The notes beneath the pieces are model-generated. The model was given only the letters and a program-made list of their open reading frames with translations, made no database searches and was not told the origin of the DNA. A stretch of DNA of 57,013 bases from an uncultured Coriobacteriaceae bacterium. GTDB taxonomy: Bacteria; Actinomycetota; Coriobacteriia; Coriobacteriales; Eggerthellaceae. The translations under genes and the position numbers were made by a program. The stretch is taken from contig URZP01000001.1 in NCBI GenBank assembly GCA_900552365.1, positions 1 through 57,013 of the forward strand. Direction: 5' to 3'. Shown one piece after another: positions 14,558-57,013 of the stretch. Numbering within the stretch: position 1 is the stretch's first letter; each line of letters begins with the position of its first letter.

Positions 14558-14594
14558 ATAACCGTCATCCATATGTGGTTGGCGGTTATTTTTA
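14558..14594 (+). terminator. Terminator-like hairpin after the DUF47 gene
   Basis: The stem ATAACCG/CGGTTAT is followed by TTTTT. The loop is long (18 nt). Confidence 0.4.
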
Positions 14595-20505: not shown

Positions 20506-20939
20506 TTCGAGCCCTTCTTCCTTAGAATCGTCGCTGGCTATTTTTCCTGGTAGCTGGCGACAATTTCTTTCAGGTACTCCTGATAGGCAACCTGAACGGA
20601 TTTCGGCGACTTCAGCCATGTTCGGTCCCTTCAGGTTGGCTTGATCTTTCGCTGAACCATTCTAAGCGTTGTCGGGTGTGCGCGCCGTCGGTCTTTCGCG
20701 AGGCGATCTGTGCCTGCCTTTCGCGTGGCGTTTTGCCCAACGAGGTTGTGCGGTCGTCGCTGCCGTGGAGCTATTTTGGGTGATGATCTGTGCCTTTTGA
20801 GCTACAGATGGCAAACAGCTCGGTAGCATCGCGAAATGCCTGTAAAATATAAGGTTGCATACACTCTGAGCCGCATGGGACGTTCGCGTTTCGGCTTGCT
20901 TCCATCGGTTTGTTTCGAGTGAGTTCGAGAGGAAACGAT

Positions 20940-23900
20940 ATGACGAACAACCAAGCCGCTCCGCTGCGAATCGGCATCGACGTCGGTTCGACCACGGTCA
21001 AACTTGCGATCTTGGATCAAGACAACACGGTTCTGTATTCCGTTTACCAACGTCACCACTCTGACGTGCGCGCCACGGTCGCCGAGGTTCTTGAGAAGGC
21101 CGCCGAGGAATTCGGCGATGCCCCCATGACCATTGCCATCACGGGCTCGGGCGGCTTGCTTCTGGCCAAGTGGCTTGGCGTCGAATTCGTCCAGGAAGTC
21201 ATCGCGTCGAAAACCGCGGTTGAGGCCTTCATCCCCGAAACCGACGTTGCCATCGAGCTTGGCGGCGAGGACGCGAAGATCATTTATTTCGATCAATCCA
21301 TCGAGCAGCGCATGAACGGTCAGTGCGCCGGCGGTACAGGCGCGTTCATCGATCAGATGGCCACCCTTCTGAACACCGATGCCGGCGGCCTGAACGAAAT
21401 GGCCAAGAAGCACACCACCATTTACCCCATCGCATCGCGCTGTGGCGTGTTCGCGAAAACCGACGTTCAGCCGCTGCTGAACGAAGGCGCCAACAGGGAC
21501 GACATCGCTGCGTCTATTTTCCAGGCCGTCGTCACGCAGACCATTTCCGGCTTGGCCTGCGGCAGGCCCATTCGCGGCCATGTGGCTTTCTTGGGCGGCC
21601 CGCTGCAGTACTTGTCCGAGCTGCGCGAGCGCTTTTACATCACGCTCGGCTTGGACGAAGAGCACATCATTTTGCCCGAGAACGCCCACCTGTTCGTGGC
21701 CAGCGGCTGTGCGGTTGCGGGTGCCGAGTCTATTCTGAAAAAGGCAAGCGACGCAGCTGAAGGTGCCCAGCCCAAGGTCGAGACGCTTTCCGCATTGGTC
21801 GAGCGCCTACATGGTCTGGGCAACATCCAGGGCTCCGAGGTCACGCGTTTGGCCCCGCTGTTCAAGGATGAGGCCGACTATCAGGAATTCAAGCAGCGTC
21901 ACGACCGCGAGCGCGTGCGTCGCGGCGACCTGGCAACCTACGAGGGCACGGCGTTTTTGGGCATCGACGCAGGCTCCACCACCTTCAAGGCCGCGCTTAT
22001 CGGCGAGGATGGCCAGATTCTGTGGACCCATTACGTCAGCAACAAGGGCGACGTTCTTGGTTGCGCTAAGGATGCGCTCGCCAAGCTGTACGCCGACCTG
22101 CCTAAAGACCCCGACACCGGCAGGCCGCTGGTTCGCATCGGCCATTCCACGGTAACAGGCTACGGCGAGGCTTTGCTGCTGCAGGCCTTGCGTGTTGATT
22201 CCGGCGAAATCGAGACCGTCGCGCATTTGCGCGGCGCGCGTGAAATGGTACCTGACGTCGAGTTCATTCTGGACATTGGCGGCCAGGACATGAAGTGCCT
22301 GCGCGTCAAAGACGGCGTTATCGACCACATCATGTTGAACGAAGCCTGCTCGTCGGGCTGCGGCAGCTTCATCGAAAGTTTCGCAAGTGGCCTGAACCTT
22401 GAGGTTGCCGACTTCGCAGAAACCGCCAATGCGGCGGAAAATCCCGTTGACCTGGGCAGTCGCTGCACTGTATTCATGAACAGCCGCGTCAAGCAGGCTC
22501 AGAAGGAAGGTGCCACGGTTGGCGACATCGCCGCCGGCCTGGCCATTTCCGTCATCAAGAACGCGCTGTTCAAGGTTATCAAGATCCGCGACCCGCATGA
22601 CGTTGGCAAGCATGTCATCGTGCAGGGCGGCACGTTCCTGAACGACTCGGTCCTTCGCGCCTTCGAACAGCTCGCCGGTGTGAATGCCGTGCGCCCCGAC
22701 ATCGCCGGCAACATGGGCGCGTATGGCGCGGCCCTTTTGGCGCGCGACCGTTTCCACGAGTCCGTCACCCGCAATGCTCGCGAGTACGCGGCCCGCGGCG
22801 AATCGGCCCCGGCAGTTGCATCCACGCTTCTTTCCGTTGACGAGCTTGCTGCGCTTAATCCCACGCATCGCACCACGCGCTGCAAGGGCTGCTCGAACAG
22901 CTGCCTGCTTACCGTCAACGACTTCGGCGTGGACGAGGAAACTGGCCGTCATCGTCGTTTCATCACCGGCAATCGCTGCGAACGCGGTGCCGGTAATGCG
23001 CTGGACAAGAAGAACGAGGTCCCGAACTTGTTCAAGTACAAGTCCGAGCGCTTGTTCGACTACTACACGCCGCTCGAGCCCGATCAGGCTACGCGCGGCA
23101 CGGTTGGCATGCCCCGCGCTCTGAACATGTACGAGAACTATCCGTTCTGGTTCACCTTCTTCACCAAGCTGGGCTTCAGGGTTGTTCTGTCTGACCAATC
23201 CACCAAGAAGGTGTTCGAGTCGGGCATCGAGTCCATGCCTTCCGAAAGCGTGTGCTACCCGGCCAAGATGTCGCATGGTCACGTTATGAATCTGCTGGCC
23301 AAGCATCCCGATTTCATCTGGATGCCCTGCAGCAAGTGGGAGCGCCAAGAGGACGAAGGCGCCGGCAACCACTTCAACTGCCCTATTGTTGCCAGCTACC
23401 CCGAGGCGTTGCGCCTGAACATCGACGAGCTGCGTACATCTGATGTGGCCTTCTTGTCGCCGTGGCTGCCCTACGACAAGCGCGATTACCTGAAGAAGCG
23501 CCTGTTCGTCGAGCTGTGCGAGAATTTCGGCAACGTTGTTGGCAAGAATGGCAGCCTGCCCACCAAGCGCGAGATCGACGCCGCCGTCGACGCCGCATGG
23601 GAAGAGGACGCGCGCTTCAAAGCCGACATCCGCGCCAAGGGCGAGGAGACGCTTGCGTGGATGGAGAAAACCAACACGCACGGCATCGTGTTGGCTGGCC
23701 GTCCCTACCACAACGACCCCGAGATCAACCACGCCATCCCCGAGCTGCTTACCAGCTTCGGCTTGGCTGTGCTTACCGAAGATTCCATCGCTCACCTGGG
23801 CACGCTCGAGCGCCCCATTCGCTTGGTTGACCAGTGGATGTTCCATACGCGCCTGTACGCCGCCGCCAAGGTGGCCACGCAGCGTCGCGACCTCGACCTT

Positions 23901-25682
23901 ATCCAGCTGAACAGCTTCGGCTGCGGCCTTGATGCCCTGACCACCGATCAGGTGCAGGAGATCCTCGAGGCTTCGGGCAAGATCTACACCGTTCTGAAGA
24001 TCGACGAGGTTTCCAACTTGGGCGCCGCTCGTATCCGTGTGCGCAGCTTGCTTGCCGCGCTTCGCGATCAGCAAGAGAAGGAAGCCGAGGCGATTCTCGA
24101 GGCCAACACCGGCTGTCCTGCCGCGCAGGCCGAAGAACTTGTCGCCAAGTTCGAGGCGCGCCGCGAGGCATCGGACGGCGCCGACGTTGCCACCGCTGCT
24201 GCCGAGATCGCCAGCAAGATGCGTGCGGCTGGCGCTGCCGAGTCCGAGGTGAACGCCCTGAAGAAGGTTGCGGCTGACCTTGAGGACGTGAATCGCGACG
24301 CCGAGTCCACCCAGTTCCCGCGCGCTGAGTTCACCAAGGAAATGAAGGATGCGGGCTACACCATCCTCGCCCCGCAGATGGCCCCGTACCACTTCGAGTT
24401 GCTGGCGCCCGTGTTCAAGGCAAACGGCTACAACATGGAACTTCTGCCGTCGGTTGACCATGGTGCGGTTGATGCCGGCTTGAAGTACGTCAACAATGAT
24501 ATCTGCTATCCGTCCATTCTGGTTACCGGCCAGATCATGGAGGCGGTCACCAGCGGTCGATACGACACGCACAAGCTGGCCGTCATCATCACGCAGACGG
24601 GCGGCGGCTGTCGTGCCACCAACTACATCTCGCTGATCCGCAAGGCTTTGAAGGCCGCGAACCTCGAGTACATCCCCGTTATCTCGCTGGCCCTGCAGGG
24701 CGGCTTGGACGAGAGCAACTCGGGCTTCAAGGTTACGCTGCCCATGCTCAAGCAGGCAATTTACGCGTTCTCGTACGGCGACCTTCTTATGACCGCGCTG
24801 TACCGCACGCGCCCCTACGAGGTCGAGCCTGGCAGTGCTCAGCGCTTGTTCGATTACTGGATGGCAACTTGCAAGCAGCAGCTGTACAGCGGCGTGAAGC
24901 AGGGCGTTTTCGCGAAGACCGTTCAAAAGATCGTCGAGGACTTCGACACCTTGCCGCTTCAGGGCGAGGGCACTAAACCCCGTGTTGGCGTTGTCGGTGA
25001 GATTTTGGTCAAGTTCCATCCTACGGCGAACAACCAGGTGGTTGACGTCATCGAGGCCGAGGGCTGCGAAGCCGTTGTCCCCGGCTTGATCGAGTTCTTC
25101 TTGTTTGGCATTGCGGGCCGCATTTTCCAGAAGGACCCGCTGGGCCGCTCGTCCAAGGGCGCGTTCGGCGCGAAGATGATCCTTGGCCTGCTAAAGACCA
25201 TGCGCAAGCCGGTTATCGACGCCATGGGGAAGTCCACGCGCTTCGAGGCCCCAACCGACATCTTCACGCTGGCCGGTTATGGCGAGGAGATCCTGAGCTT
25301 GTGCAACTCCATGGGTGAGGGTTGGCTGCTTACCGCCGAGATGGTTGAGCTGGTGCGTCATGGCGCTCCGAACGTCGTGTGCGCTCAACCGTTCGCGTGC
25401 CTGCCCAACCACGTGGTTGGCAGGGCCGTCATCAAGGAGATCCGCCGCCGTTACCCCATGGCCAACATCGTGGCCGTCGACTACGATCCTGGCTCGTCCG
25501 AAGTCAATCAGCTCAACCGCATCAAACTGATGATTTCGGTTGCTAAGGCTAACTTGGCCGAGAAGGAGGCCGAGGCGAAGGGTCAGCGCGATGCGCGCCT
25601 GGATGCTGCTGGCCCGCATGCGGTCCAGCAGGACATGGGCGATTTCGAGCTGGATGTTGAAACCGAAAAGGTTGAGAAGTAA
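20940..25682 (+). CDS. Giant fusion of two BcrA/BadF/HgdC-type activase ATPase domains, a CoA-enzyme-activase-associated domain and a 2-hydroxyacyl-CoA dehydratase (HgdB/D-like) module
   Basis: Two acetate/sugar-kinase-fold starts ('[14 protein letters not shown]', '[14 protein letters not shown]') are followed by the Cys cluster 'CKGCSNSC...GNRCERG'. Next come '[14 protein letters not shown]' and '[10 protein letters not shown]', an Ala/Glu-rich linker, and '[14 protein letters not shown]' and 'GGGCRATNY'. I prefer the ATG at 20940 (preceded by GAGAGGA) over 20910. Confidence 0.8.
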
Positions 25683-34905: not shown

Positions 34906-34981
34906 GGGGATGTAGCTCAGCTGGGAGAGCATTACGTTCGCAACGTAGGGGTCGTGGGTTCGAATCCCATCATCTCCACCA
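34906..34981 (+). tRNA. tRNA-Ala (anticodon CGC)
   Basis: A 76-nt cloverleaf was folded by hand: acceptor GGGGATG/CATCTCC with the G3:U70 alanine identity pair, D arm GCTC/GAGC, anticodon loop TTCGCAA, T arm GTGGG-TTCGAAT-CCCAT, and an encoded CCA. Confidence 0.95.
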
Positions 34982-34992
34982 CGGAAACTGCA

Positions 34993-35023
34993 GGTCAGGG
35001 GGTTATTCCTCCTGACCTTTTTC
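34993..35023 (+). terminator. Rho-independent terminator after tRNA-Ala
   Basis: A 10-bp stem GGTCAGGGGG/CCTCCTGACC (one G.U pair) with loop TTATT is followed by TTTTTC. Confidence 0.8.
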
Positions 35024-35144
35024 TTTACGGGAAGGCATTTTTCGCCTCCGTCTGCAAACCGCGTGCGAACGATACGCGAAAGCGCGGTCTTGTTGGGGGA
35101 TCGCGGCTAAGTCGCAGCGCTTCCGGGCAATCGGGAGTTAATGA

Positions 35145-36362
35145 GTGAAAGGTCGAATCGCGCATATGAATGAGGGCGCTTCTTCGAAATCGTCGAACGG
35201 GCTGGTTTGGCTTCTTGCCGTGTGCTGCTTCATCTTGGGCAGCGCTCAGCAGTATCTGTTGGGCGTGCCTGACCAAATCGCTTCCGATACCGGCGTCTCG
35301 CTTTCGGCGATCAGCCTTCTTATGACGGCGTATGCACTGGTCAATGCCTTACTTGCGCCAGTTGCCATCATGGTTACGGCGAAGTGGTCGCAGCGCAGGC
35401 AGCTTATTGGGGGCATGGTACTTATTGTTGCCGGTTTGGCTTTGATGGGTTTGACGAACAACTTCGGCCTGCTCATCTTCTCGCGCGGCCTTGTCGGCTT
35501 GGGTAACGGCGTCTTTGTGGTAACCGCTTACGCGCTTGCGCAGTCGCTGGCGGCTCCCGGCAAGCAGGCGTCCGCTATGGCGGATGTTGCACTGGGCTTC
35601 AGCGCCTCGTCGGTTTTGGCCATGCCCATCGCTCGCGCCCTTCGCGACATCATCAGCTGGCATTCTGCCTATTTGGCGCTCGCTGTGCTCGGCGTGGTGG
35701 GCATCGCGGCCGTCATGCGTTTGATTCCCGAGATCAAATCCGCCAACGCCTCGTCTTCGGCCAAGGATCGCTTGACGCCGCTTGCCAACAAGGCGGTCGT
35801 ATCGGCGCTGGCCGGATCGCTGTTCGTCTTCATGGCCTTCAGCGTGTTCTACACCTACATCACCCCGTTTATCGACACGGCCATGCCCGAGCTGGGTTCG
35901 GGCACCAGCGTTGTCCTGTTCGGCCTGGGAATCATGAGCCTGATCGGTACGAAGCTTTGCGGCGTCATCGCCGACCGCTTCAGCCCGCGCACGGCTATCG
36001 AGTTCTGCCTGGTCTCCATCGCGCTTATGCTTGCGGCGACATTCGCGCTTGAAGGCGCCGGCTGCGGCGTTATTCCGCCGTTGCTGCTGTGGATGGGCGC
36101 GGCGTGGATGTTCGTCCCTGTCCAAAACGTGGTGCTAACCGACCTTGCCGGCGAGGGTTCGGCCATGGCTCTTTCGCTTTCGAATTCCTTCATGCAGATG
36201 GGCAACGCGCTTGGTGCGCCCATCGCAGGTATGGTCATTGCGGTTGCTCCCGTTATGGTCTTGCCGTTGGTTGCCGTTCCCTTCATTTTAGGCGCGTTCG
36301 GCTTTGAGGAGTTCGCGTTTCGAAAGGGACAGTTGCCCCGTCGTTCGGGGAAGAGGGCGTAA
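35145..36362 (+). CDS. MFS transporter (12 TM), paralogue 1
   Basis: It has a hydrophobic 12-TM pattern, and GGGAG lies 7 nt before the GTG. It is closely related to the protein at 37778-38983. Confidence 0.8.
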   Translation: MKGRIAHMNEGASSKSSNGLVWLLAVCCFILGSAQQYLLGVPDQIASDTGVSLSAISLLMTAYALVNALLAPVAIMVTAKWSQRRQLIGGMVLIVAGLALMGLTNNFGLLIFSRGLVGLGNGVFVVTAYALAQSLAAPGKQASAMADVALGFSASSVLAMPIARALRDIISWHSAYLALAVLGVVGIAAVMRLIPEIKSANASSSAKDRLTPLANKAVVSALAGSLFVFMAFSVFYTYITPFIDTAMPELGSGTSVVLFGLGIMSLIGTKLCGVIADRFSPRTAIEFCLVSIALMLAATFALEGAGCGVIPPLLLWMGAAWMFVPVQNVVLTDLAGEGSAMALSLSNSFMQMGNALGAPIAGMVIAVAPVMVLPLVAVPFILGAFGFEEFAFRKGQLPRRSGKRA

Positions 36363-36427
36363 AGCCGCAGTTTGCGGGCCCGCGGCTTGTTTGGTGCTAG
36401 CGTGCGGCTGCCTGGTTGTTTGCGGGA

Positions 36428-37681
36428 TTACAGCGCGAACGGGTCATCGTCCTGCTCGGCATCGCGTTTCAGTTGAAGCAGCTGCGCCACCATGGCGGTG
36501 TCGCCTTCGTCGGTTGCCTGGTCAATCACCTTGGTGAACGTTTCGGCGTCCAACACTCCCGTATCGACGAGTTTCTTGAAGCCGTCGGCGTTCCCGCGAT
36601 CGCGGAATAGACCGCAAACGGTCCAGATCTTGTTGCGCAGAAAAGCCGTGAACTGCTCGCGCATGGTCGGGCTGAGGAAGATGGGGTCGGCTAGGCGGTT
36701 GACCATTGTTCCGTAGCGTGCAAAGTGGTCGTTCTGGTTGAGCGTGGCGCGGTCCATCTCGGCCATGATGAGCGTGGGGTCGATGATGTCCGTTTTGAAC
36801 ATGCGGTTCACGGCGTTCAGGCCCGCCTCGTTGCGCGGCGGTTCGATCTTAAGCCGATCGTGTCCGTCTACCGCGGGCGAAAGCCCGATGACGATGCGGC
36901 GCGGAGGCTCGCTGAGCGCAAGTGCCGACGGTCCCAGCTTTTTCACGCCGCCGTGCACGACCAGTTCTTCCAACGTGGACGCGTTCGCGAACGCCATGGG
37001 GCCGATCTCAGTTACTTCCTTGGGGATGGCCACGTTGGTGGCGGGGCCGATGTACAACACAGCCACGTCGCCGCCGTCGGCCGCCGCCTTGCGTGCGCAC
37101 AGAACGTCGGATGCCAGGTAGAAGCTGTCGTTTTCGGGGTCGATCGAGATCTCGTACAGGTTGAGCGATCGTCCGCTGGTCCACATTTCCGATTTGCCGC
37201 CGCCGTCGGCCACCAACGCGCACGACCCTATGTGGTTGCAAGCCGCGGGAATGTGAAGCGACTCGATGGACGATCCGAAGAACGCCCAGTCCTCGATGCG
37301 CTCAAGGGAATCGGGAAGAACCTCGGTTGTCAGGTTCTCGCAGGCGCTGAAAGCGGAATCGCCGATCCAGCGAACACCCTGGGGAATGGCGATCATCTCG
37401 AGGGCCGTGTTGCCGGCGAAGGCCAGGTTGCCTATGCCGATGGTTCCGTCCATCGCGCGGTAGGCGCGCGCTTGGCTTTCCGATGCGTCCTCAAGCACCA
37501 GCCCGTCGGGTGTTTTCCGGTAGACCACGCCATCGGCGTCGACGATGGTTTCGGGCGCGTTGTTCGCGTGCGCCTTGCTGGTAGGGACTGGCGCGTCGCT
37601 CGCTTCGCCCCCTTCGGCCGCCGCGTCTTGTTGTACGGCTGCATCTTGTGTGGCAAGTTTGGTTTCGGGGTGGTCGGCCAT
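36428..37681 (-). CDS. BspA-type leucine-rich-repeat protein with a helical C-terminal domain and no signal peptide
   Basis: It carries repeats of the 'I(P/G)xxVxxIGxxAFxxCxxL' type ('IPQGVRWIGDSAFSACENL', 'LPDSLERIEDWAFFGSSI', 'IPKEVTEIGPMAFANASTL'). The N-terminus is acidic and Ala-rich. Confidence 0.65.
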   Translation of the reverse strand: MADHPETKLATQDAAVQQDAAAEGGEASDAPVPTSKAHANNAPETIVDADGVVYRKTPDGLVLEDASESQARAYRAMDGTIGIGNLAFAGNTALEMIAIPQGVRWIGDSAFSACENLTTEVLPDSLERIEDWAFFGSSIESLHIPAACNHIGSCALVADGGGKSEMWTSGRSLNLYEISIDPENDSFYLASDVLCARKAAADGGDVAVLYIGPATNVAIPKEVTEIGPMAFANASTLEELVVHGGVKKLGPSALALSEPPRRIVIGLSPAVDGHDRLKIEPPRNEAGLNAVNRMFKTDIIDPTLIMAEMDRATLNQNDHFARYGTMVNRLADPIFLSPTMREQFTAFLRNKIWTVCGLFRDRGNADGFKKLVDTGVLDAETFTKVIDQATDEGDTAMVAQLLQLKRDAEQDDDPFAL

Positions 37682-37777
37682 GTGCGCTTTGCTCCTTGTC
37701 GTTTTGCTCCTTTAAAATATACCGTTGGATTTGCATCGCGCCGCACACGCGGCGTTTTTTCTTGAAAGGGGCCTTGC

Positions 37778-38983
37778 ATGGGCGAAGCGCGCGACGAAGC
37801 TAAGGGCATGGGATCTGAAAAGGGCTCTTCGAGGTTGATCTGGCTTTTGGCTCTTTGCTGCTTTGTTCTAGGTTGCTCTCAGCAGTATATCTTGGGTGTG
37901 CCCGACCAGGTTGCCGCAACGCTTGACATCTCGCTTGGTCAGGTTAGCCTTCTTATGACGGCGTTCGGCCTGATCAACGCCTTCCTGGCGCCCGTCATCG
38001 TTATGCTGACTGCGCGCTATTCGGCTCGCGTCCAGCTTCTGATTGGCTTGGCGTGCATGGCAGTCGGCCTTCTTATGACCGCAGTTACCAGTATCTTTCC
38101 GCTTCAGATGGTTGCGCGCGGCATCATGGGAATGGGCAACGGCGCGTTCGTGGCCACGGCGTATTCCGCTTCGCAGAAGCTTGCTGCGCCCGGAAAGCAG
38201 GCAAGCGCCATGGCCAACGTGGCCCTGGGCTTCAGCGCGGCGTCGGTTTTGGCCATGCCCATTGCCCGCGCATTGCGCGAGAGCGTTAACTGGCAGAACG
38301 CGTACCTGGTCATCGCTATCTTCGCGGTGGCGGCCTTCCTTGTCATCGCTAAGGTGTTCCCGAACACGGCTCCCGACACCGAGGACCTTACCGTCAAACA
38401 GCGCCTTGCTCCGCTGGCGAACAAGGCGGTGATGTTCGCCTATGCTGGCACGACTTTCATGGTTTGCGCTTTCGCCTGCTTCTACACGTACGTCACGCCG
38501 TTCCTGGATGCGTTCGCGCCGCAATTCAACGCGTATCTGAGCGTCGTCTTGCTGGTTGTCGGCCTGATGAGCATGCTGGGCACAAAGCTTCACGGTTGGC
38601 TTGCCGACCGTGTTGGCCTTCGCATTGCGATTATGACCAGCTTCATCTGCTCGACGTTGTCGCTGCTTTTGATCTTCTTCTGCGAGGGTGCGGGCTTGGG
38701 CCTTGTTGGCGCCCTTTGCCTGTATCAGCTGTTCGCATGGGCGTTTCTGCCTGTTCAGAACACGCTTTTGGCGTCCATTGCGGGCGATGGCGCGCGTATG
38801 GCCATTGCTCTTTCGAGCTCGTTCTTGCAGCTGGGCAATGCCATCGGTGCGGCCATTGCCGGCATCGCCGTTTCGTCGGCCCCGTTCGGTGCGCTTCCGC
38901 TGATCGCTTTCCCGTTCGCGCTGCTCGCCATTGCGGCCGAAGTCACGGCGCTTACGTTTGCTGCTAAGAAGATGGCGAGGTAA
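37778..38983 (+). CDS. MFS transporter (12 TM), paralogue 2
   Basis: 'LIWLLALCCFVLGCSQQYILGVPDQVA' here compares with 'LVWLLAVCCFILGSAQQYLLGVPDQIA' in paralogue 1. The similarity continues along the whole length. Confidence 0.8.
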   Translation: MGEARDEAKGMGSEKGSSRLIWLLALCCFVLGCSQQYILGVPDQVAATLDISLGQVSLLMTAFGLINAFLAPVIVMLTARYSARVQLLIGLACMAVGLLMTAVTSIFPLQMVARGIMGMGNGAFVATAYSASQKLAAPGKQASAMANVALGFSAASVLAMPIARALRESVNWQNAYLVIAIFAVAAFLVIAKVFPNTAPDTEDLTVKQRLAPLANKAVMFAYAGTTFMVCAFACFYTYVTPFLDAFAPQFNAYLSVVLLVVGLMSMLGTKLHGWLADRVGLRIAIMTSFICSTLSLLLIFFCEGAGLGLVGALCLYQLFAWAFLPVQNTLLASIAGDGARMAIALSSSFLQLGNAIGAAIAGIAVSSAPFGALPLIAFPFALLAIAAEVTALTFAAKKMAR

Positions 38984-39154
38984 CTCGGCTTTCCCTATAC
39001 GTTCGGGTTTGTCGTGCTTGCTGCTTTATGATTCGGGTTTTGATCTGCAGATGGTTTGAATCGGTCGAAGCCCGCTTGCTTCTCGATTAATCTACCCCCT
39101 ATGGGTTAATATGCCGGCGTGCGCCACGCGCGACGTTGGCTGGGAGGTAGCTAC

Positions 39155-39829
39155 ATGAATACGAAAACCAAGCGCAGAATGATGGCGGTCACCGGCGTCG
39201 TTGTCATCGCTCTTGTTGTCGTGCTTGCCGTTGTGGGCGGAAGCTCTGCGGCGCGCAACGTCTCCGTTGCCGAAGCTGCTTCGGGTTCGGTTCACGACGC
39301 CAAGGTCAAGGTTTCCGGCAAGGTCGTGCCCAACTCGTTCTCCACCGACAACAACGTGCTTGTCTTCTCGATTTACGATTCCGAGGTCGACCCCGATGCA
39401 CAGACCGCTTTGAAGGTTCGTTACGACGGTGGCGTTTCCTCCACGTTCGGCAACGACGTCGAGGCTATCTGCACCGGAAAGGTTGGTTCCGACGGCGTGC
39501 TGCAGTGCACCGAGTTGGTCACGAAGTGCCCCTCGAAGTACGAGAACGCGTCCGAGGCCCTTTCGGTTGAGAAACTGCTTTCGTACGGTGCCGATGTCTA
39601 CGACAAGCCGGTCAAGATCGTGGGAACGGTTGCAGCGGGTTCGATCGCCTCTGCGACTGCTGATCAGCGCTTCGTTGTGCAAGATTCCGCCACGCCCGAC
39701 GTTCAGCTTCCCGTTTCGTTCGAGGGTGGCTTGCCTGACAACCTTTCCGAGGGATCGTCCGTCGTTCTTACCGGTGCGCTCTCTTCTGAGGGCAAGTTCG
39801 TTGCGACCGAGGTCGCTCTGGAGGGATAA
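39155..39829 (+). CDS. ccmE: Cytochrome c maturation heme chaperone CcmE, variant CxxxY type, with a second CcmE-like OB domain
   Basis: A TM anchor is followed by 'VKVSGKVVPNSF...VFSIYDSE...VRYDGGVSSTFGNDVEAICTGKV...ELVTKCPSKYE', which parallels E. coli 'LRVGGMVMPGS...FTIYDAEG...[23 protein letters not shown]...EVLAKHDENY'. Cys125 (nt 39527-39529) replaces the heme-binding His. Residues from about 140 to 224 repeat the OB pattern without the motif. Confidence 0.8.
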   Translation: MNTKTKRRMMAVTGVVVIALVVVLAVVGGSSAARNVSVAEAASGSVHDAKVKVSGKVVPNSFSTDNNVLVFSIYDSEVDPDAQTALKVRYDGGVSSTFGNDVEAICTGKVGSDGVLQCTELVTKCPSKYENASEALSVEKLLSYGADVYDKPVKIVGTVAAGSIASATADQRFVVQDSATPDVQLPVSFEGGLPDNLSEGSSVVLTGALSSEGKFVATEVALEG

Positions 39830-39834
39830 CCAGC

Positions 39835-42078
39835 ATGTCCATGTTCGGCTACGGATGTTTGATCGTTTCTCTTGTTGCCGCAATCGCGGCAACGGTTCTG
39901 CTTGCAGCGGGCCAGGTTCTTTCTGCCCGATCCGGTAAGGCGGGCACGGCGGAAGGGCAGGGGGAAAGCGACCGCGCTGCCGCGCTTTCGAGGTTTGGTC
40001 GCGCGCTGTCCGTGGTCGTTGCGGCGGCCTTGTTCGTTTGCTGCGCTATTCTGGTTTACTGTTTCTTCGCGGGTGACTACTCCATTCTGTACGTGCTGCA
40101 GGAGCGCTCGCTTTCCACCAGCAACCTTGCTTGGCTCTACAAGTTGTCGGGCCTGTGGGCGGGTCGTGCGGGTTCGTTGATGTTCTGGGCCTTCATCATC
40201 TCGCTGTTCGTGGTTGCGCTGTGCGTTCGCGCGCGCAAGGACGCTTCGACGATGGACAACATGGCCATCCTGGTCATGAACGTGGTCCTGCTTGCGTTCT
40301 TGGGCGTTCTTGTGTTCTCGGAAAGCAACATGCCCTTTACGGCAACCCCGGCAAGCTACTTCAATTCCGATGGCTCTCTTACCGCTGTCGCTTCGATGAG
40401 CGGCATGAACTCGCTGCTTGAGCATTGGGCCATGGCCATTCACCCGCCTGTTCTGTTCGTGGGCTACGCTGGCATGGCAGTGCCGTTCGCGTACGCCATC
40501 GCCACGCTCATCGTTGGTGACTCGTCGGCGAAGTGGGTCGAGCGTTCCTCTCGCTTCACGCTGTTCAGCTGGCTTTTCCTGGGCGCGGGCATCGGCCTTG
40601 GCGCCGTGTGGGCTTACGTTGTGCTGGGCTGGGGCGGCTACTGGGGCTGGGACCCGGTCGAGAACGCCAGCTTGCTTTCGTGGTTGGTGGGCGTTGCCTT
40701 AATCCACACGTTCACGGTTTACCGCCAGCGCGGTGCGTTCAAGCGTTGGGCTGTTATGTGCGCCTGCCTTGCGTTCGCGTTCGTCATCGTGGGCACGTTC
40801 ATTTCCCGTTCGGGCATCGTTCAGTCCGTTCATGCATTCGAGGGCGATCCCGTTTCGCTCGCGCTGTTCGGCTCGCTGATCGCGCTTGCGGTTCTGGCTG
40901 GCATCGTTGGCTTGGCAATTCGTTGGAAGCAGTTCGACGCCGAGACCGAGGGTGGCGACGACGTCGAGAACATGGTCTCCAAGGACGCTGCTTACTACTT
41001 CAACAACGTGATCATGATCGTATTCACGCTTCTGCTTACCTACATGACCGTTTCGTCCGCGTTGCCGTCGTGGCTTCCGTTCGGCGGTCAGTCGCTGGGT
41101 ACCACGTCGTATGATTCCATCGCGCGCCCGCTGGGCATCGTGTACCTGTTCATTTTGGCGGTGTGCCCCCTGCTTGCCTGGGGAAAGACCGACCCGAAGA
41201 AGTTCTTCAAGCAGGCGAAGGTTCCAGGCATCTGCGCTTTGGCTCTGTTCGCGGTTTTGCTGGCGTATTACGTGACCACGTTGATGCCTGCGTACTTCGA
41301 CATGCTTTCTCTTGACAACAGCAAGTCCGCCGCACTGGCCGAGGCGGGCCCCTCGTGGTACTACGTCGGTCTTTCCGTTGTCGGCTTGTTCGTGGCCAGC
41401 CTGCTGTTCTTCAACGCGCTGTTCATGATCGGTCGCGGCATTTCGCGCTATGCGAAGGTGCACAAGACGAACGTGCTCTCTTCGGCTATTGGCCTGTTCC
41501 GCAATCATGCGGCAACGTACGGCGGCGCATTGGCCCATGTCAGCATGGCGATCATCTTGGTCGGCCTTATCGGCTCGTCCATGTACGTTACCGAGAAGAC
41601 GGGCTATCTGCCTTACGATTCCCAGACGGACACCTCGTCTGCCGAGTTCACCATTCAGGATTACACGCTTAAGATGGCAGGCACCGCCGACTCCGCAAAC
41701 CAGGCGACTTACACCGTCTCGTCGCAGCTTGATTTCGATGTGTACCGCGGCGGCGAGTACGTCGGCCAGGTTCATCCGTCTGTTCAGCAAAACGTGATGA
41801 CCCAGCAGCAGAAGCTCGACGCTGGCGTTATCAGCTTCGCCGACGAGGATCTCTTCGTGGTTTACCGCGGCTTGAGCGCCACGGGTTCGCTGTCGCTTGA
41901 CGTTCGTGTGAACCCGTTGATCTCGCTTGTGTGGTCTGGCTTCGGTTTGTTGATGGTTGCCATCGTGCTTGCGCTGGCAGGTCGTCGTGGTTCGGGCGAG
42001 CTGCTTGCTACGTCTGGCGCCGCGGGTTCCGACGTGAAGCAGGGCGAATCTGCCAATGCGAAAGCTTGCGAGGCGTAA
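39835..42078 (+). CDS. ccmF: Cytochrome c-type biogenesis protein CcmF (heme lyase component)
   Basis: The 747-aa polytopic protein carries the WWD motif 'WGGYWGWDPVEN' (about nt 40629-40664). Confidence 0.9.
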   Translation: MSMFGYGCLIVSLVAAIAATVLLAAGQVLSARSGKAGTAEGQGESDRAAALSRFGRALSVVVAAALFVCCAILVYCFFAGDYSILYVLQERSLSTSNLAWLYKLSGLWAGRAGSLMFWAFIISLFVVALCVRARKDASTMDNMAILVMNVVLLAFLGVLVFSESNMPFTATPASYFNSDGSLTAVASMSGMNSLLEHWAMAIHPPVLFVGYAGMAVPFAYAIATLIVGDSSAKWVERSSRFTLFSWLFLGAGIGLGAVWAYVVLGWGGYWGWDPVENASLLSWLVGVALIHTFTVYRQRGAFKRWAVMCACLAFAFVIVGTFISRSGIVQSVHAFEGDPVSLALFGSLIALAVLAGIVGLAIRWKQFDAETEGGDDVENMVSKDAAYYFNNVIMIVFTLLLTYMTVSSALPSWLPFGGQSLGTTSYDSIARPLGIVYLFILAVCPLLAWGKTDPKKFFKQAKVPGICALALFAVLLAYYVTTLMPAYFDMLSLDNSKSAALAEAGPSWYYVGLSVVGLFVASLLFFNALFMIGRGISRYAKVHKTNVLSSAIGLFRNHAATYGGALAHVSMAIILVGLIGSSMYVTEKTGYLPYDSQTDTSSAEFTIQDYTLKMAGTADSANQATYTVSSQLDFDVYRGGEYVGQVHPSVQQNVMTQQQKLDAGVISFADEDLFVVYRGLSATGSLSLDVRVNPLISLVWSGFGLLMVAIVLALAGRRGSGELLATSGAAGSDVKQGESANAKACEA

Positions 42079-42808
42079 GTTGGATTCCGTTCAGGGCAAA
42101 CCCGCAATCGAAGTAAAGCACCTGAGCAAGGTGTTCGGCACGCGTCGCGCTGTTGACGACGTCAGCTTCGTTTTGCCACAAGGTGCTTTCTTGTCGATCT
42201 TCGGCCCCAACGGTGCCGGCAAAACCACGCTCTTGCGCGTGTTATCCACGCTTGCGCGCGCTTCGTCTGGCGAGGCGCGCGTCATGGGCGTCAACGTGAA
42301 GGAAGAGCCCGACGCCGCGCGCAACTTCATCGGTTTGATCTCGCATCAGCCCATGCTGTACCCCGACCTCACGGCCGAGGAGAATCTGCTGTTGTATGCC
42401 GAGCTGTACGGCGTTGCCGATCCGCAAAAGCGCGTGAACGAATTGCTTGATGTGGTGGGCCTTTCGCATCGCAGGCTCGACCCGGTGCGCACGTTCTCGA
42501 AGGGAATGACGCAGCGCGTGGCCATCGCCCGCGCTATCGTCCACGACCCGGCGGTCGTGTTTCTTGACGAGCCGTATTCCGGGCTTGACCCGCATGCGGT
42601 CGACATCTTCGATAGTCTGATCGCCGATATCCGCGACGAGCACACGTTCGTCATGGTCAGTCATGATTTACGGAAGGGTTTCGCCATGTGCTCGCATGCG
42701 TTGGTTCTGGCTCGCGGCCGCGTGGTTTCCTTCGACGATAAAAACGCGTTGGATTTCAGTGAGTTCTCGCAGCTGTATCGCGAGACTGTTGGAATGGGGG
42801 TTGCCTGA
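42056..42808 (+). CDS. ccmA: Heme exporter ATP-binding protein CcmA
   Basis: ABC motifs 'GPNGAGKTT', 'FSKGMTQR' and 'VFLDEPYSGLD' are present. The assignment rests on context between ccmF and ccmB. The start (ATG 42056 or TTG 42080) is uncertain. Confidence 0.75.
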   Translation: MRKLARRKLDSVQGKPAIEVKHLSKVFGTRRAVDDVSFVLPQGAFLSIFGPNGAGKTTLLRVLSTLARASSGEARVMGVNVKEEPDAARNFIGLISHQPMLYPDLTAEENLLLYAELYGVADPQKRVNELLDVVGLSHRRLDPVRTFSKGMTQRVAIARAIVHDPAVVFLDEPYSGLDPHAVDIFDSLIADIRDEHTFVMVSHDLRKGFAMCSHALVLARGRVVSFDDKNALDFSEFSQLYRETVGMGVA

Positions 42809-43515
42809 TGTTGCAGACGCCTTCAACTTTCCAACAGTACAAGACGCTTCTTCGCAAGGATCTCCAACAGGAATTCCGCACGCACGACATGGTCGTGTCC
42901 ATGGGGCTGTTCGCGCTGTTGGTCATCATCGTGTACGGCGCTGCGCTTGCTCAGACCGCGGCAAGCCTGGACATCGTGCGCATGTCGGGTGGTCTTATCT
43001 GGGCGCTCATCGTGTTCACGTCGCTGTTGGGCTTGAACCGCTCGTTCTCGCACGAGAAGGAGCAAGGCTGCCTTGAGGGCATCTTGCTGGTTCCGCTTGA
43101 TCGTTCGGTTGTTTACCTGGCGAAGGCCACATCTAACTTCCTGTTCCTGCTTGCGGTCGAGATCATCGCCGTGCCGCTGTTCGTGTTTTTCTTCATGACC
43201 ACCGAGACGTTCTCGGATTCGTTCTTGTTCTTAGTGTTTCCGCTGCTTTTGGGCACCGTGGGAATCGCGGGCATCGGCACCATGCTTTCGACCATCACCG
43301 TCAACACGCGTGGCAAGGACGTCATGCTGGCGGTGCTGTTCATCCCGCTGATCTACCCGCTGCTGTACGCATGCGTGACCGCAACGACGGCGGCCATCTG
43401 CGGTGGCGAGTTTTGGATGGATTCGTATACGATGCCGCTTGTCATGGCGGCAGGATATGATGTGATCATGTTGGCCCTTTGTTGGGTTTTGTACAACTTC
43501 ATCATTTCGGCTTAG
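42808..43515 (+). CDS. ccmB: Heme exporter membrane protein CcmB
   Basis: It is a six-TM protein with a CcmB-like N-terminus ('LLRKDLQQEFRTHD') and 'FSHEKEQGCLEG'. Its ATG shares one nt with the ccmA TGA. Confidence 0.8.
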   Translation: MLQTPSTFQQYKTLLRKDLQQEFRTHDMVVSMGLFALLVIIVYGAALAQTAASLDIVRMSGGLIWALIVFTSLLGLNRSFSHEKEQGCLEGILLVPLDRSVVYLAKATSNFLFLLAVEIIAVPLFVFFFMTTETFSDSFLFLVFPLLLGTVGIAGIGTMLSTITVNTRGKDVMLAVLFIPLIYPLLYACVTATTAAICGGEFWMDSYTMPLVMAAGYDVIMLALCWVLYNFIISA

Positions 43516-43603
43516 CTTGCGGTTTAAGACGCGAGAGCCGCGAAGACCGATCTTTAAATTGATCGGAAGTAACTTGCAATACCGAACCTAGGTTAGGAGC
43601 AGG

Positions 43604-44368
43604 ATGGCGAACAATAAGAACGTGAAGATCCCCGAAGCGGGGCAGTGGCCCGACAAGCTGCTTGTTCCGGCGCTGATCGCGGGCCTTGTGCTTACCACCG
43701 TGGGCTTTCTGCTGGCGTTTTTGTGGGTAGGGCCGGTCAACGGTGCCGCGGTGAACGGGTTCGCCCTTATCGGCGGTCGCATGGTCACCAACATCCAGCT
43801 GCTTTCGCAGAAGATCTTCTACTTCCACATGCCGGTGGCTATCACCTCGTTCGTGCTGATGGGCTTCGCGGGGTATTACGCTGTCCGCTTTCTTATGACG
43901 AAGAACCAGCGTTTCGACACCTGCTCGCGCGTTGCCCTTGAGGGGTCGCTGCTGTTTATCATCATGACTATGTTCACGGGCGACCTGTGGACCCGTTTCG
44001 AATGGGGCGTGTGGTGGACGTGGGACCCTAGGCTTACCACGTACCTTATCCTGATGCTCATCGTCATTGCATGCTTCGTGCTGCGCAACTCCATTGACGA
44101 GCCCGAGCGTCGCGCGACGTATTGCTCGGTTATCACCATCATCGCGTTCGTCGATGTGCCGATTTGCATGATGATCACGCGTATGATCCCGTCGAGCCTT
44201 CATCCCGTGGTGACTCGCGAGGGCGGAATGACGGGCGACATGGCCATCACGCTCGTGCTTATCGTCGTCGGTATGCTGCTTATCGGGTTCGCGTTGTACC
44301 GCACGCGCTTCCGCCAGCTTCGCGTTGCCGAGCGCATCCAATCCATCACCGACCAGCTTGAAGACTAA
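43604..44368 (+). CDS. ccmC: Heme exporter/heme-handling protein CcmC
   Basis: The WWD motif 'WGVWWTWDPRLTT' is present, and the RBS AGGAGC precedes the ATG. Confidence 0.9.
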   Translation: MANNKNVKIPEAGQWPDKLLVPALIAGLVLTTVGFLLAFLWVGPVNGAAVNGFALIGGRMVTNIQLLSQKIFYFHMPVAITSFVLMGFAGYYAVRFLMTKNQRFDTCSRVALEGSLLFIIMTMFTGDLWTRFEWGVWWTWDPRLTTYLILMLIVIACFVLRNSIDEPERRATYCSVITIIAFVDVPICMMITRMIPSSLHPVVTREGGMTGDMAITLVLIVVGMLLIGFALYRTRFRQLRVAERIQSITDQLED

Positions 44369-44379
44369 GGGGAACGAAT

Positions 44380-44580
44380 ATGGATCCTATTTTGCAAGAG
44401 ATTTACAGCACCGTCGTTCCGTCTGCGCCGTTTTTGATTGCGGCCTACGCGCTTCTGTGGGCGGCGCTTTTGGTGTACGTCGTCGTCATGCAGCGCGGCC
44501 TTAAGAACTCAGAGAAGCGATTGGATCTGCTTGAAACCGAGTTGGCTTCAAAGAAGCCAAGCGACAGCCTCCAGGGTTAA
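44380..44580 (+). CDS. ccmD: CcmD-like small single-TM protein
   Basis: The 66-aa product has one TM segment ('FLIAAYALLWAALLVYVVVM') followed by a basic segment. It sits directly after ccmC. Confidence 0.6.
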   Translation: MDPILQEIYSTVVPSAPFLIAAYALLWAALLVYVVVMQRGLKNSEKRLDLLETELASKKPSDSLQG

Positions 44581-44752: not shown

Positions 44753-45565
44753 ATGAAGGCACTTATTCCTGCAGCCGGTTTGGGCACGCGTTTCCTGCCC
44801 GTCACCAAGGCTCAGCCGAAGGAAATGCTCCTGGTCGTTGACAGACCGGTCATCCAATACGTCGTCGAAGAGGGCCTTGCCTCTGCCGCCGACGAAGTCG
44901 TCATCATCAACAGCCACTCCAAGAAGGCCATCGAGGATCACTTCACCCCCGATCCCGAGCTGGTTGCCACGCTGCGCGCTCGCGGCAAGGACGCTTATGC
45001 CGACGAAGTCGAGCGCGTTGGCAACATGAACGTTAGCTACGTGTACCAGGAAGAGGCCCTTGGTCTTGGCCATGCTATCCATTGCGCCGCTGAAAAGACC
45101 GGCGACGAGCCCTTCTACGTGCTGCTGGGCGACGTCATCGTCCCCGACAACAAGATGCTTCCGCGCATGCAGGAAGTTTCTGACGCGCACGGTGGTGCCA
45201 GCGTCATCGCCGTCATGCCCGTTCCCGACGATCAGGTTCACCGTTTCGGCATCATCGCCGGCTCCGAGGTTTCCGAGAACGTTTGGAAGGTCGACTCCCT
45301 GGTTGAGAAGCCTGCTTTGGAAGATGCTCCCTCCAACCTGGCCGTCTTCGGCCGCTACCTGCTGTCTCCGCGCGTCATGGAGCTTCTGGCTACCGTGAAG
45401 CCCGGCGTTGGCGGCGAGATCCAGCTTACCGACGCTCTTGATGAGGTTCTGAAGGAAGAAGAGATGTATGCGCTCGTCATCGATCCTTCCGACGGCTTTG
45501 ACACCGGCACCGTTGCCAGCTGGCTCGAGACGAACAACATCCTTTTCCAGCGTAAGAATTCGTAG
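44753..45565 (+). CDS. galU: UTP-glucose-1-phosphate uridylyltransferase
   Basis: 'KALIPAAGLGTRFLPVTKAQPKEML' and 'VEKP' are present. I prefer the ATG at 44753, after AAAGGGA. Confidence 0.9.
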   Translation: MKALIPAAGLGTRFLPVTKAQPKEMLLVVDRPVIQYVVEEGLASAADEVVIINSHSKKAIEDHFTPDPELVATLRARGKDAYADEVERVGNMNVSYVYQEEALGLGHAIHCAAEKTGDEPFYVLLGDVIVPDNKMLPRMQEVSDAHGGASVIAVMPVPDDQVHRFGIIAGSEVSENVWKVDSLVEKPALEDAPSNLAVFGRYLLSPRVMELLATVKPGVGGEIQLTDALDEVLKEEEMYALVIDPSDGFDTGTVASWLETNNILFQRKNS

Positions 45566-45605
45566 CGATCGTCGGTCGATCCATTCGCGTGCTAAGGAGC
45601 CGTTC

Positions 45606-46493
45606 ATGCCGGATATCGCACTCCGTTTCAACAAGGACATGCTGACGTTGTCGACGCCCGTTCAAAACGCGCTCGCGCGTCAGGGCGTCGATGTCGATGC
45701 CGATCTTGAATACCAGCTTCTGATGGAGCCCGAGGCTATCGTCGATGCCATTCGCCTTGAAGCCGCTGCGGGCGCCCAGTGCCTGGTTGTGCCCACCGAT
45801 GGCATCACCGCCGCGCGCTTGTCGCACAAGCGCATGGAAGGCAAGGCTCATGACCTGGCGCACGCCGCTTGCGCTTGCGCCAACGAGGTGAAGCCCCAGC
45901 ACGTCGTTGCCGCGATCGGCCCCAGCGGTTTGCCCATCGATCCTTCGTCGAAGGCGTCGCTCAACGAGAACCGCGCGCAATACGCCGACGCCGCCAGGGC
46001 ATTCCAGGGCGAGACGTTCGACGCCTTCCTTCTTGATGGCTTCACGCGCAAGGAAGACTTGATGTGCGCGCTTATGGGCCTTGCCCAGGTGGGCGACACC
46101 CCGGTGCTCGCTTCGGTCGTCGTCGATTCCGATGGCGTTACCCCACGCGGCGACACCATCGAGGACGTGTGCGCGCTCATGCAGGAATACGGCGCAAGCG
46201 TCGTCGGCTTCTCCACGTCTGCGGCGCCTGCCGTCGCGGCTAAGCTGGTCCGCCGTGCTGCTTCGGCATGCAGCCTTCCTATCTTGGTTCAGCTTGACGT
46301 GCGCGAGGTCAACCCGCGTCAATTCGAGACCACCGACCAAAACCCGTACTACCGACCCGATGAGATGGTCACCGCCGCAGCGCATCTTCATGCTGCGGGC
46401 GCTCAGTTCATTCGCGCCATCGGCGCGGCGACTCCGTCTTATACGGGTGCCATCGCCGCAACCACGGGCGGTCTTGACGTGCGTCTTTCCTAG
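45606..46493 (+). CDS. Homocysteine S-methyltransferase-fold protein lacking the zinc-ligand cysteines
   Basis: It follows the overall Hcy-binding TIM-barrel pattern ('AAGAQCLVVPTDGIT', 'VVAAIGPSG', 'FDAFLLDGF'). The positions of 'GxNC' and 'GGCCGTTP' read 'VGFSTSA' and 'AIGAATPSY'. The ATG at 45606 follows TAAGGAG. Confidence 0.5.
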   Translation: MPDIALRFNKDMLTLSTPVQNALARQGVDVDADLEYQLLMEPEAIVDAIRLEAAAGAQCLVVPTDGITAARLSHKRMEGKAHDLAHAACACANEVKPQHVVAAIGPSGLPIDPSSKASLNENRAQYADAARAFQGETFDAFLLDGFTRKEDLMCALMGLAQVGDTPVLASVVVDSDGVTPRGDTIEDVCALMQEYGASVVGFSTSAAPAVAAKLVRRAASACSLPILVQLDVREVNPRQFETTDQNPYYRPDEMVTAAAHLHAAGAQFIRAIGAATPSYTGAIAATTGGLDVRLS

Positions 46494-56603: not shown

Positions 56604-56846
56604 GCTTCCTTTCTTCGGTTCATGATCTTCAGGTGCATTCTACTTCTATTCTGCTGTCTTCGTTATCATCGGAGTTTCCGAATAAAACAAACAGGTTACA
56701 GTCGTTCCTATAGCTCTTTTTTATAGCAACATCACTAGAACCTGCGGTAATATGCAGGTGTCTCAAACGATGCAAAACAAAAAACATCGGTATAGCCGAT
56801 GCAAAAGGGAGATTTGCACCGTGGCAATTTAGGGGAAAGGTACGTT

Positions 56847-57013
56847 ATGGGACGTCCAACTATCTATCCCACCGGCACCACTGTCTATGATCCCGAAAAG
56901 TGCCAGAACGGTTACACCGTTCTGTCCGTCCCGCCCCTGGGCGTCATTTTGCTTGACATGAACGGCAAGGTCGTTCGTCGTTGGAAGGATTGCTATGGCT
57001 TTCCGCCCAAGAT
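56847..57013 (+). CDS. 3'-truncated gene, N-terminus resembles arylsulfotransferase (ASST)-family proteins
   Basis: The ATG is preceded by AGGGGAAAGG. 'MGRPTIYPTGTTVYDPEKCQNGYTVLS' resembles ASST N-termini as I recall them. The ORF runs off the window, which is why the track omits it. Confidence 0.4.
   Translation, partial: MGRPTIYPTGTTVYDPEKCQNGYTVLSVPPLGVILLDMNGKVVRRWKDCYGFPPK

Follow-up and report, generated by a model that had tools for sequence, protein, structure and literature searches.

A probable System I* cytochrome c maturation operon with a tandem-OB CcmE in a gut Eggerthellaceae bacterium

The ccm gene cluster

The DNA analysed here is a 57,013-nt stretch of contig URZP01000001.1 (the window; all coordinates are positions within it), and its subject is a cluster of cytochrome c maturation (Ccm) genes. 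Six co-directional open reading frames (ORFs) on the + strand, at 39155–44580, were assigned to CcmE, CcmF, CcmA, CcmB, CcmC and a CcmD-family peptide by the ORF list together with Pfam and NCBIfam profiles, and the agreement of ORFs and profile matches bears out the initial annotation, which had placed a six-gene Ccm cluster in the order E-F-A-B-C-D at these positions. The first gene, ccmE (39155–39829, +), encodes a 224-aa, Cys-type, membrane-anchored haem chaperone with two OB (oligonucleotide/oligosaccharide-binding) domains, matched by PF03100 in two stretches (E = 2.5e-32), and is followed by ccmF (39835–42078, +) for a cytochrome c synthetase of 747 aa (PF01578, E = 3e-33; PF16327, E = 4e-21). 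The ABC ATPase gene ccmA (42080–42808, +; 242 aa from the TTG at 42080) matches ABC_tran with E = 6e-30 and TIGR01189 with 120.7 bits (cut-off 131.6), and ccmB (42808–43515, +) encodes an ABC permease of 235 aa with six hydrophobic segments (PF03379, E = 5.6e-30). The cluster closes with ccmC (43604–44368, +), for a haem-handling WWD protein (PF01578, E = 2e-22; TIGR01191, E = 5.5e-26), and ccmD (44380–44580, +), for a single-pass peptide of 66 aa with one transmembrane (TM) helix, which scores 26.0 bits against TIGR04391 (CcmD_alt_fam; cut-off 24). Judged by these profiles, E-values of 1e-20 to 1e-33 across five adjoining genes are far beyond chance.

The genes are tightly packed, and of the junctions given in the initial annotation those of ccmE with ccmF (stop 39829, ATG 39835), of ccmA with ccmB (1 nt shared, TGATG at 42806–42810) and of ccmC with ccmD (spacing 11 nt) were recovered. 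The 23-nt ccmF/ccmA overlap also given there did not hold up in the same way, as it arises only if ccmA is opened at ATG 42056, the start of its longest ORF. Three points favour the TTG at 42080, one base past the ccmF stop: a GAGG ribosome-binding site precedes it, the ccmA of a 95%-identical relative is called from this start, and the resulting length fits the 237–243 aa of CcmA in relatives; hence the overlap is probably not real. For ccmE, the longest ORF opens at GTG 39119; because a GGGAGG ribosome-binding site lies 7 nt 5′ of ATG 39155 and all ccmE homologues in the alignment open with MNTKTKRR, ATG 39155 is likely the start. Scanned for promoters and terminators, the surroundings of the operon yielded no more than shuffled sequence would, and an Rfam scan near the operon returned no regulatory RNA, only a tRNA-Ala.

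The WWD motif and the conserved His ligands of canonical System I are kept in both CcmF and CcmC, as alignments to structures 6zmq and 7f02 indicate. CcmF, with 14 hydrophobic segments, aligns to Thermus thermophilus CcmF (6zmq) with E = 1.6e-50, and its WWD haem-handling motif WGGYWGWDPVENAS (40630–40671, +) differs from the 6zmq motif in one residue. A candidate P-His1 lies in HWAMAIHPP (40423–40449, +), and further conserved His are found in LIHTF (40699–40713), QSVHAF (40822–40839) and LAHVS (41530–41544), all on the + strand; the first three (HPP, LIHTF, SVHAF) align to His of 6zmq. The four would correspond to Escherichia coli H173, H261, H303 and H491. In CcmC the WWD motif WGVWWTWDPRLT, which includes WGVWWTWD, lies at 44003–44038 (+), and the only two His of the protein, H75 (43820–43834 region) and H200 (44195–44209 region), each fall opposite one of the two His in the alignment with E. 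coli CcmC (7f02_C). The Walker A (GPNGAGKT), signature (SKGMTQR) and Walker B (VVFLDEP) motifs are all present in CcmA.

CcmD is found at the same place in 13 loci of Coriobacteriia, with scores of 50–88 bits. Its TM part is conserved between the window and L081, a contig of a ~95% identical relative from a Hadza gut metagenome; its cytoplasmic C-terminal tail (44545–44580 in the window, 15391–15438 in L081) carries an indel, so that the peptides measure 66 and 70 aa, and the last ~15 residues are unrelated.

A cysteine-type CcmE with two OB domains

CcmE begins with an N-terminal TM anchor at residues ~9–27 (39179–39235, +; hydropathy 3.05), modelled by AlphaFold2 as a helix at residues 3–27, and continues with a first OB domain (OB1) at residues ~30–120 (39242–39514, +; AlphaFold2 strands at residues 50–124). 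The predicted haem-binding motif follows at 39527–39541 (+) and reads CPSKY, from Cys125 to Tyr129, in place of the canonical HxxxY. Cys125 occupies the position of the haem-binding His, and no H...Y motif is present in either CcmE domain. Across an alignment of 34 CcmE homologues K124, C125, P126, S127, K128, Y129 and E130 are invariant, and CPSKY is likewise found in the Cys-type CcmE of Aquicultor, Anaerolineae and ANME-2.

This replacement of the haem-binding His by a Cys, mostly within CPSKY, is the hallmark of System I* (PMC3601427; PMC9084895). The Cys-CcmE variant was found in archaea and Desulfovibrio by Allen et al. 2006 (FEBS Lett 580:4827; PMC3601427), and reports up to 2011 added delta-proteobacteria, Chloroflexi and Firmicutes (PMC3601427). 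All CcmE proteins adjoining the 80 nearest CcmF homologues are of the Cys type (Aquicultor and other Actinomycetota, Anaerolineae, Acidobacteriota, ANME-2), and the haem-delivery and ligation set of System I*, that is CcmA, B, C, (D), E and F, is complete in the window, with CcmD above the TIGR04391 cut-off. From its genes and motifs, we consider that the locus is very probably a functional cytochrome c maturation operon of the System I* type in an Eggerthellaceae bacterium.

Thus the initial annotation, in which the cluster appeared as an anomalous System I in a Gram-positive, stands as far as a complete Ccm set in a monoderm is concerned; the anomaly falls away, since KCPSKY marks the known System I*, already noted in Firmicutes and Chloroflexi. 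Nor can the cluster be called reordered, as was done there, because the Cys-CcmE loci retrieved from Actinomycetota, Chloroflexota and Acidobacteriota usually have ccmE-ccmF first and ccmA-B-C after them. The order E-F-A-B-C-D and the lack of ccmG and ccmH are therefore the normal state of a known variant. The Desulfovibrio operon presumably has the order ccmEFABCD as well.

Behind the motif the protein folds again. A second OB domain (OB2), at residues ~151–224 (39605–39826, +; AlphaFold2 strands 152–223), carries no haem-binding tail and stops at ATEVALEG, exactly where canonical CcmE runs on into that tail. The CcmE structures 1j6q, 1sr3 and 2kct align best to residues 152–221 of the query, and in an internal BLASTP comparison OB1 and OB2 are 30% identical (E = 3e-8). 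An AlphaFold2 model built with the 34 homologues has a mean predicted local distance difference test score (pLDDT) of 83, with 83–94 in the OB2 block, and is laid out as a TM helix, barrel 1 (50–124), the CPSKY segment, a helix (138–148) and barrel 2 (152–223). When this model was searched with Foldseek, CcmE structures ranked first, followed by other OB-fold and tandem-OB proteins. By its sequence, the second OB domain of the Coriobacteriia CcmE is the product of an internal duplication and is placed directly after the haem-binding motif.

The two-domain form is widespread in the class. At ~221 aa it occurs across Eggerthellaceae in more than 100 homologue clusters at 90% identity, with homologues named from Berryella, Arabiibacter, Adlercreutzia and Gordonibacter, and it is present in a divergent branch (33% CcmE identity) made up of Collinsella and other Coriobacteriia. 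In a 50%-identity representative library, full-length two-domain matches extend down to ~32% identity, and weaker ones cover residues 1–133 only. All Cys-type CcmE retrieved from outside the Coriobacteriia are single-domain proteins of 129–187 aa (as start codons allow) with the motif near the C-terminus. Mean pairwise identity among the 34 homologues is 0.66 for OB1 versus 0.58 for OB2, so that OB2 is nearly as conserved. Some divergent two-domain homologues (P0152, P0233) have no haem-binding Cys: where KCPSKY would stand they read NQPAEY and KVPVTY, and they may be paralogues that have degenerated or taken on a new function.

No account of a two-domain CcmE or of Ccm in Coriobacteriia was found in the open-access literature, which is absence of evidence only; the tandem-OB CcmE appears to be undescribed, and would be the single unreported feature of the operon. 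With the haem-binding Cys flanked by a barrel on either side, a role of OB2 in haem shielding, or in docking to CcmF or the apocytochrome, is plausible, and our best guess is that the two barrels hold the haem between them and that OB2 shields or positions it at the exposed surface of a cell that has no outer membrane. A bolder proposal, which we regard as rather unlikely, is that OB2 would be the innovation that makes a Ccm system free of CcmH and CcmG work on a monoderm surface, either as a haem clamp or as an apocytochrome-binding or CcmF-docking element replacing CcmH/CcmI. If that were so, OB2 might be what heterologous hosts lack for compatibility with Eggerthella multihaem cytochromes such as Cgr1.

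Conservation, origin and candidate substrates

The best CcmF matches, at 56–73% identity, come from Eggerthellaceae, Gordonibacter, Raoultibacter and Slackia, in line with the monoderm actinobacterial host suggested in the initial annotation. Since the best matches of CcmF and CcmE point the same way and L081 is a ~95% identical gut contig, the host is, on this sequence evidence, a gut Eggerthellaceae (Coriobacteriia, Actinomycetota), a monoderm.

Compared with L081, the ratio of nonsynonymous to synonymous substitution rates (dN/dS) is 0.05–0.11 for every ccm gene (0.05 for ccmE, 0.10 for ccmD) with no stops, which indicates purifying selection. The set EFABCD is complete in the 13 Coriobacteriia loci whose contigs span the cluster, and three further contigs break off within it. 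Its position between veg/tRNA-Ala(CGC) and galU is shared by most Eggerthellaceae loci. Its G+C content of 0.583 shows no deviation from the 0.597 of the window. In a neighbour-joining tree, which is rough, midpoint-rooted and without bootstrap, the Coriobacteriia CcmF are monophyletic and sister to Aquicultor together with another Actinomycetota metagenome-assembled genome.

The divergent Collinsella-type branch has the same operon. On one contig of this type (L084, 8001–16684), ccmEFABCD is followed by a hemX-like PF01578 gene, sirC (a precorrin-2 dehydrogenase of sirohaem-synthase type), hemA (glutamyl-tRNA reductase) and hemC, a gene string that joins haem synthesis to haem attachment.

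Upstream of ccmE the genomes vary. The tRNA-Ala(CGC) at 34906–34981 (+; ARAGORN and Rfam), downstream of veg, opens a variable islet that extends as far as ccmE. This tRNA is only ~310 bp from ccmE in Gordonibacter L001 (8864–9252), where the islet measures ~0.3 kb; in the window the islet takes up 4.2 kb (34906–39154), with a major facilitator superfamily (MFS) gene, a gene for a BspA-type leucine-rich repeat (LRR) protein and a second MFS gene, and in the relatives L009, L011 and L081 it spans 3.4–8.9 kb. The islet carries multihaem cytochromes in several relatives, and ccm itself is constant.

A recent horizontal transfer of the cluster, from a diderm (Desulfobacterota) or from Chloroflexota, could be argued from the textbook-atypical standing of System I in Gram-positives (PMC3884852), from the tRNA-linked variable islet that the cluster borders, and from a study in eLife which infers frequent inter-domain transfer of ccm genes. 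We consider it highly improbable. Eggerthellaceae and Collinsella-type Coriobacteriia alike have the cluster, and the two-domain CcmE found in all of them is a shared derived trait; the flanks are alike in most Eggerthellaceae loci; CcmF is monophyletic with other Actinomycetota nearest; there is no G+C deviation; and the variable islet stops upstream of ccmE. The horizontal origin raised in the initial annotation, for which CcmF and CcmC trees had been proposed, finds, as a recent event, no backing in the CcmF tree or in the conserved position and composition of the cluster. Instead, conserved order and position, purifying selection, G+C content, CcmF monophyly and the Collinsella branch argue for an operon that would be old, vertically inherited, class-wide and ancestral to Coriobacteriia.

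The islet is also informative on candidate substrates. In L081 it holds a 4.7-kb cassette (3912–8598), between an LRR_5 gene and an MFS gene upstream of ccmE, which comprises a GerE/LuxR regulator, a flavoprotein reductase of the FAD_binding_2 family with a twin-arginine translocation (TAT) signal, and a pentahaem PF14537 cytochrome with CX4CH. A blastn comparison of L081 with the window puts the site of this cassette at 37752–37761, from which it is cleanly absent; the junction lies just past a terminator-like hairpin, GCGCCGCACACGCGGCG, followed by T6. The cassette has the same parts as the cgr locus of Eggerthella lenta, whose Cgr1 is a NapC/NrfH-like cytochrome of PF14537 (PMC5953540).

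Loci of Gordonibacter and Raoultibacter, and others related to them, have nrfA as the immediate upstream neighbour of ccmE (L010, 6727–9037; L002, 6643–8964; L004, 6936–9092; L008). The NrfA of these relatives (PF02335) has one CxxCK and four CxxCH and a lipoprotein-like signal (LAACAP), and nrfA is paired with a gene for a membrane-anchored pentahaem cytochrome with CX3CH (CNAICH), CXXCH, CX4CH (CLNEGCH), CXXCH and CXXCH. It follows from the cytochrome genes beside the operon in relatives that the species group makes c-type cytochromes. By this analogy, the clients in the lineage are likely pentahaem quinol dehydrogenases resembling NrfH and Cgr1, together with NrfA, and one CcmF would need to act on CXXCH, CX3CH, CX4CH and CXXCK sites alike.

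The adjoining nrfA with its CxxCK, together with a best NCBIfam match of CcmF to TIGR03145 (NrfE), might suggest that the operon encodes a dedicated lyase of the NrfE type for the CxxCK haem of NrfA and not a general maturation system. However, this match reaches only 295.8 bits, far under the cut-off of 927.3, and a generic CcmF/NrfE model scores nearly alike. No gene of the CcmH-like NrfF or of the tetratricopeptide-repeat NrfG is present in the window; the operon includes all of CcmABCDE, the haem-delivery module that systems of the NrfEFG type borrow; purifying selection acts on the operon in the window and its 95% relative, neither of which has an adjoining nrfA; and the Collinsella-type locus is linked to haem biosynthesis genes instead. 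A restriction to NrfA is therefore hardly to be expected.

Accessory factors and relation to known systems

The Pfam scan covered 45 of the 46 likely genes selected from the window and the coding sequence at 45468–46493, the partial 3′ ORF at 56799–57013 being left out. None of the scanned genes matched CcmH (PF03918), a thioredoxin/redoxin family or DsbD/CcdA, and a motif scan of all 46 selected genes returned neither LRCxxC nor WCxxC. The absence of ccmG and ccmH next to the cluster, noted in the initial annotation, is thereby extended to the whole window, and it applies as well to the flanks fetched for related Coriobacteriia loci (up to 10 kb per side where the contig allows). The CcmH and thioredoxin motif matches in the window and in Coriobacteriia loci are scattered, fall mostly in spurious overlapping ORFs, and do not recur. 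As a positive control, PF03918 was readily detected in L021 and L025. For System II, ResB (PF05140) gave 17 bits inside the C-terminus of CcmF, below the cut-off of 24.6, and no separate ResB ORF in the window.

In an ordinary split System I, CcdA with a thioredoxin resembling ResA or CcmG, or CcmH, would be encoded elsewhere, and the system would not be minimal. This possibility gains from the fact that only 57 kb of the genome are in view, and from other Cys-CcmE lineages: between ccmF and ccmA, Anaerolineae have an insert with genes for CcmH and a thioredoxin-like protein and Acidobacteria an insert with one for CcmH (L021, L025), and while about two-thirds of bacteria with Cys-CcmE have no CcmH, about one-third do (PMC3601427). 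In Coriobacteriia the insert is missing and ccmF and ccmA are contiguous, and no thiol-redox or CcmH partner was detected in the window or recurs in the flanks. Moreover, Cys-CcmE systems without CcmH and CcmG function in Desulfovibrio and Methanosarcina (PMC3601427; PMC9084895), the Desulfovibrio operon makes holocytochromes in E. coli without CcmH/CcmG (Goddard et al. 2010, JBC 285:22882; PMC3601427), and strict anaerobes may need no dedicated disulfide reductase. We regard a split system as possible but doubtful.

Several points weigh against the view of the locus as a functional, self-contained System I* operon. CcmA, CcmB, CcmC, CcmE and CcmF stay below their NCBIfam equivalog cut-offs and are thus divergent members of their families. 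The AlphaFold2 model leaves uncertain how the two OB domains are oriented to each other (predicted template modelling score, pTM, 0.47). The absence of CcmH, of proteins resembling CcdA or ResA, and of System II spans the 57-kb window and not the rest of the genome. Covalent haem binding by Desulfovibrio vulgaris CcmE is disputed (PMC3884852), and the Cys-haem chemistry is therefore unsettled even in model organisms. Finally, CXXCH counting gave no multi-motif ORF and no c-type cytochrome gene in the window, where three ORFs have a single CXXCH each, two of them inside the MgsA-type ATPase and alaS genes; with the L081-type cassette also missing beside the operon in this strain, substrates in this genome are suggested only by the relatives.

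This last pair of observations could also mean that the operon is a decaying relic in this strain after loss of its cytochrome clients. Yet the six ORFs are intact, the catalytic motifs checked in CcmE, CcmC and CcmF are kept, dN/dS is at the low values given above, and Eggerthellaceae typically carry many Cgr1-like cytochromes (PMC5953540), all of which makes decay scarcely credible. Recent transfer, an NrfE-dedicated system and a relic operon were all rejected, on conservation, on the NrfE score, and on the intact ORFs with their dN/dS.

From the observed gene content, motifs, conservation, synteny and purifying selection we infer a scheme of haem chemistry in which the set would suffice without CcmG and CcmH and would serve the clients proposed above. 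By homology, CcmC, with its WWD motif and two His, would present haem b at the outer membrane face to the membrane-anchored CcmE, which would take the haem via Cys125 of KCPSKY in place of the canonical His. CcmAB and the small CcmD peptide would then use ATP to free holo-CcmE, and CcmF, with its WWD motif and conserved His, would attach the haem at the CXXCH-type motifs of cytochromes that are exported by Sec and are membrane- or lipid-anchored. The operon itself has no gene for a dedicated CcmH or CcmG on which this scheme could draw.

The reductases with which Eggerthellaceae respire or transform many molecules of dietary, host or drug origin are wired to membrane multihaem cytochromes c. 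One of these is Cgr1, the membrane multihaem cytochrome of the digoxin reductase, which Koppel et al. failed to load with haem c in any heterologous host, and for which they suspected incompatible maturation factors (PMC5953540). The six-gene System I* operon would be a concrete co-expression cassette and is an obvious candidate for maturing Eggerthella cytochromes such as Cgr1. With it, the CcmH/G-free Ccm variant is also documented for an entire class of Actinomycetota, and a CcmE with its motif between two OB folds offers a natural variant for probing haem holding and hand-over. Otherwise the annotation value is ordinary, as the genes are already auto-annotated as Ccm in public Coriobacteriia genomes.

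The remaining genes of the window are of housekeeping type, with suf genes, a recJ-helicase fusion, rel, ask and asd upstream, metG, tatD, ksgA and veg nearer the cluster, and galU, genes for an MscS-type channel and an MgsA/RarA-type ATPase, and alaS downstream. The flanking genes recJ, rel, metG, tatD, ksgA and veg of the initial annotation were all recovered by the profile scan. Upstream of rel, a protein of 1117 aa (7108–10461) joins RecJ (DHH, DHHA1, RecJ_OB) to a DEAD/Helicase_C module, which is an unusual single-polypeptide nuclease-helicase. Another large protein, of 1590 aa (20910–25682), has two BcrAD_BadFG ATPase modules and DUF2229, is followed by a TP_methylase gene, and resembles a giant activase of the type serving (R)-2-hydroxyacyl-CoA dehydratase or benzoyl-CoA reductase. 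Between rel and the aspartate kinase gene, a 546-aa ORF on the − strand (13045–14685) has coding-like G+C content at third codon positions and no Pfam match and overlaps smaller + strand ORFs; it is a candidate gene.

Four known systems bear comparison with the operon. System II (ResB/ResC, CcdA, ResA) does the same task in monoderms, and its ResC has the PF01578 domain in common with CcmF and CcmC; it works without CcmE and CcmAB, whereas the window has these and no ResB. Canonical System I (E. coli ccmABCDEFGH; 7f02, 8ce8, 6zmq) consists of the same protein families, with the WWD motif and His ligands of CcmC and CcmF and the OB fold of CcmE, and here a Cys replaces the His of CcmE, CcmG and CcmH are absent from the window, the order is E-F-A-B-C-D, CcmE has tandem OB domains and the host is a monoderm.

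The streamlined archaeal Ccm, as in Methanosarcina acetivorans (CcmABCEF; PMC9084895), has, like the operon, a CxxxY CcmE, does without CcmH/I and can dispense with CcmG/CcdA; the 80 nearest CcmF homologues include one from ANME-2. Archaea have no CcmD, their CcmF is often split and their genes are dispersed (PMC9084895), whereas here CcmD and a single CcmF are encoded in a tight operon. With System I* the operon agrees in the Cys-type CPSKY CcmE, in CcmA, B, C, D and F, in the lack of CcmH/CcmG within the operon and in the leading ccmE-ccmF pair. It differs in lying in Coriobacteriia, a class that was not found named in the open-access literature, and in CcmE, since the protein of D. vulgaris (2kct) has a single OB domain with the motif on a flexible C-terminal tail. 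Because here a second OB barrel follows the motif, we call the operon a variant of System I*. The system kind itself was already known; what is new is the documentation of Coriobacteriia as a host class and the tandem-OB CcmE.

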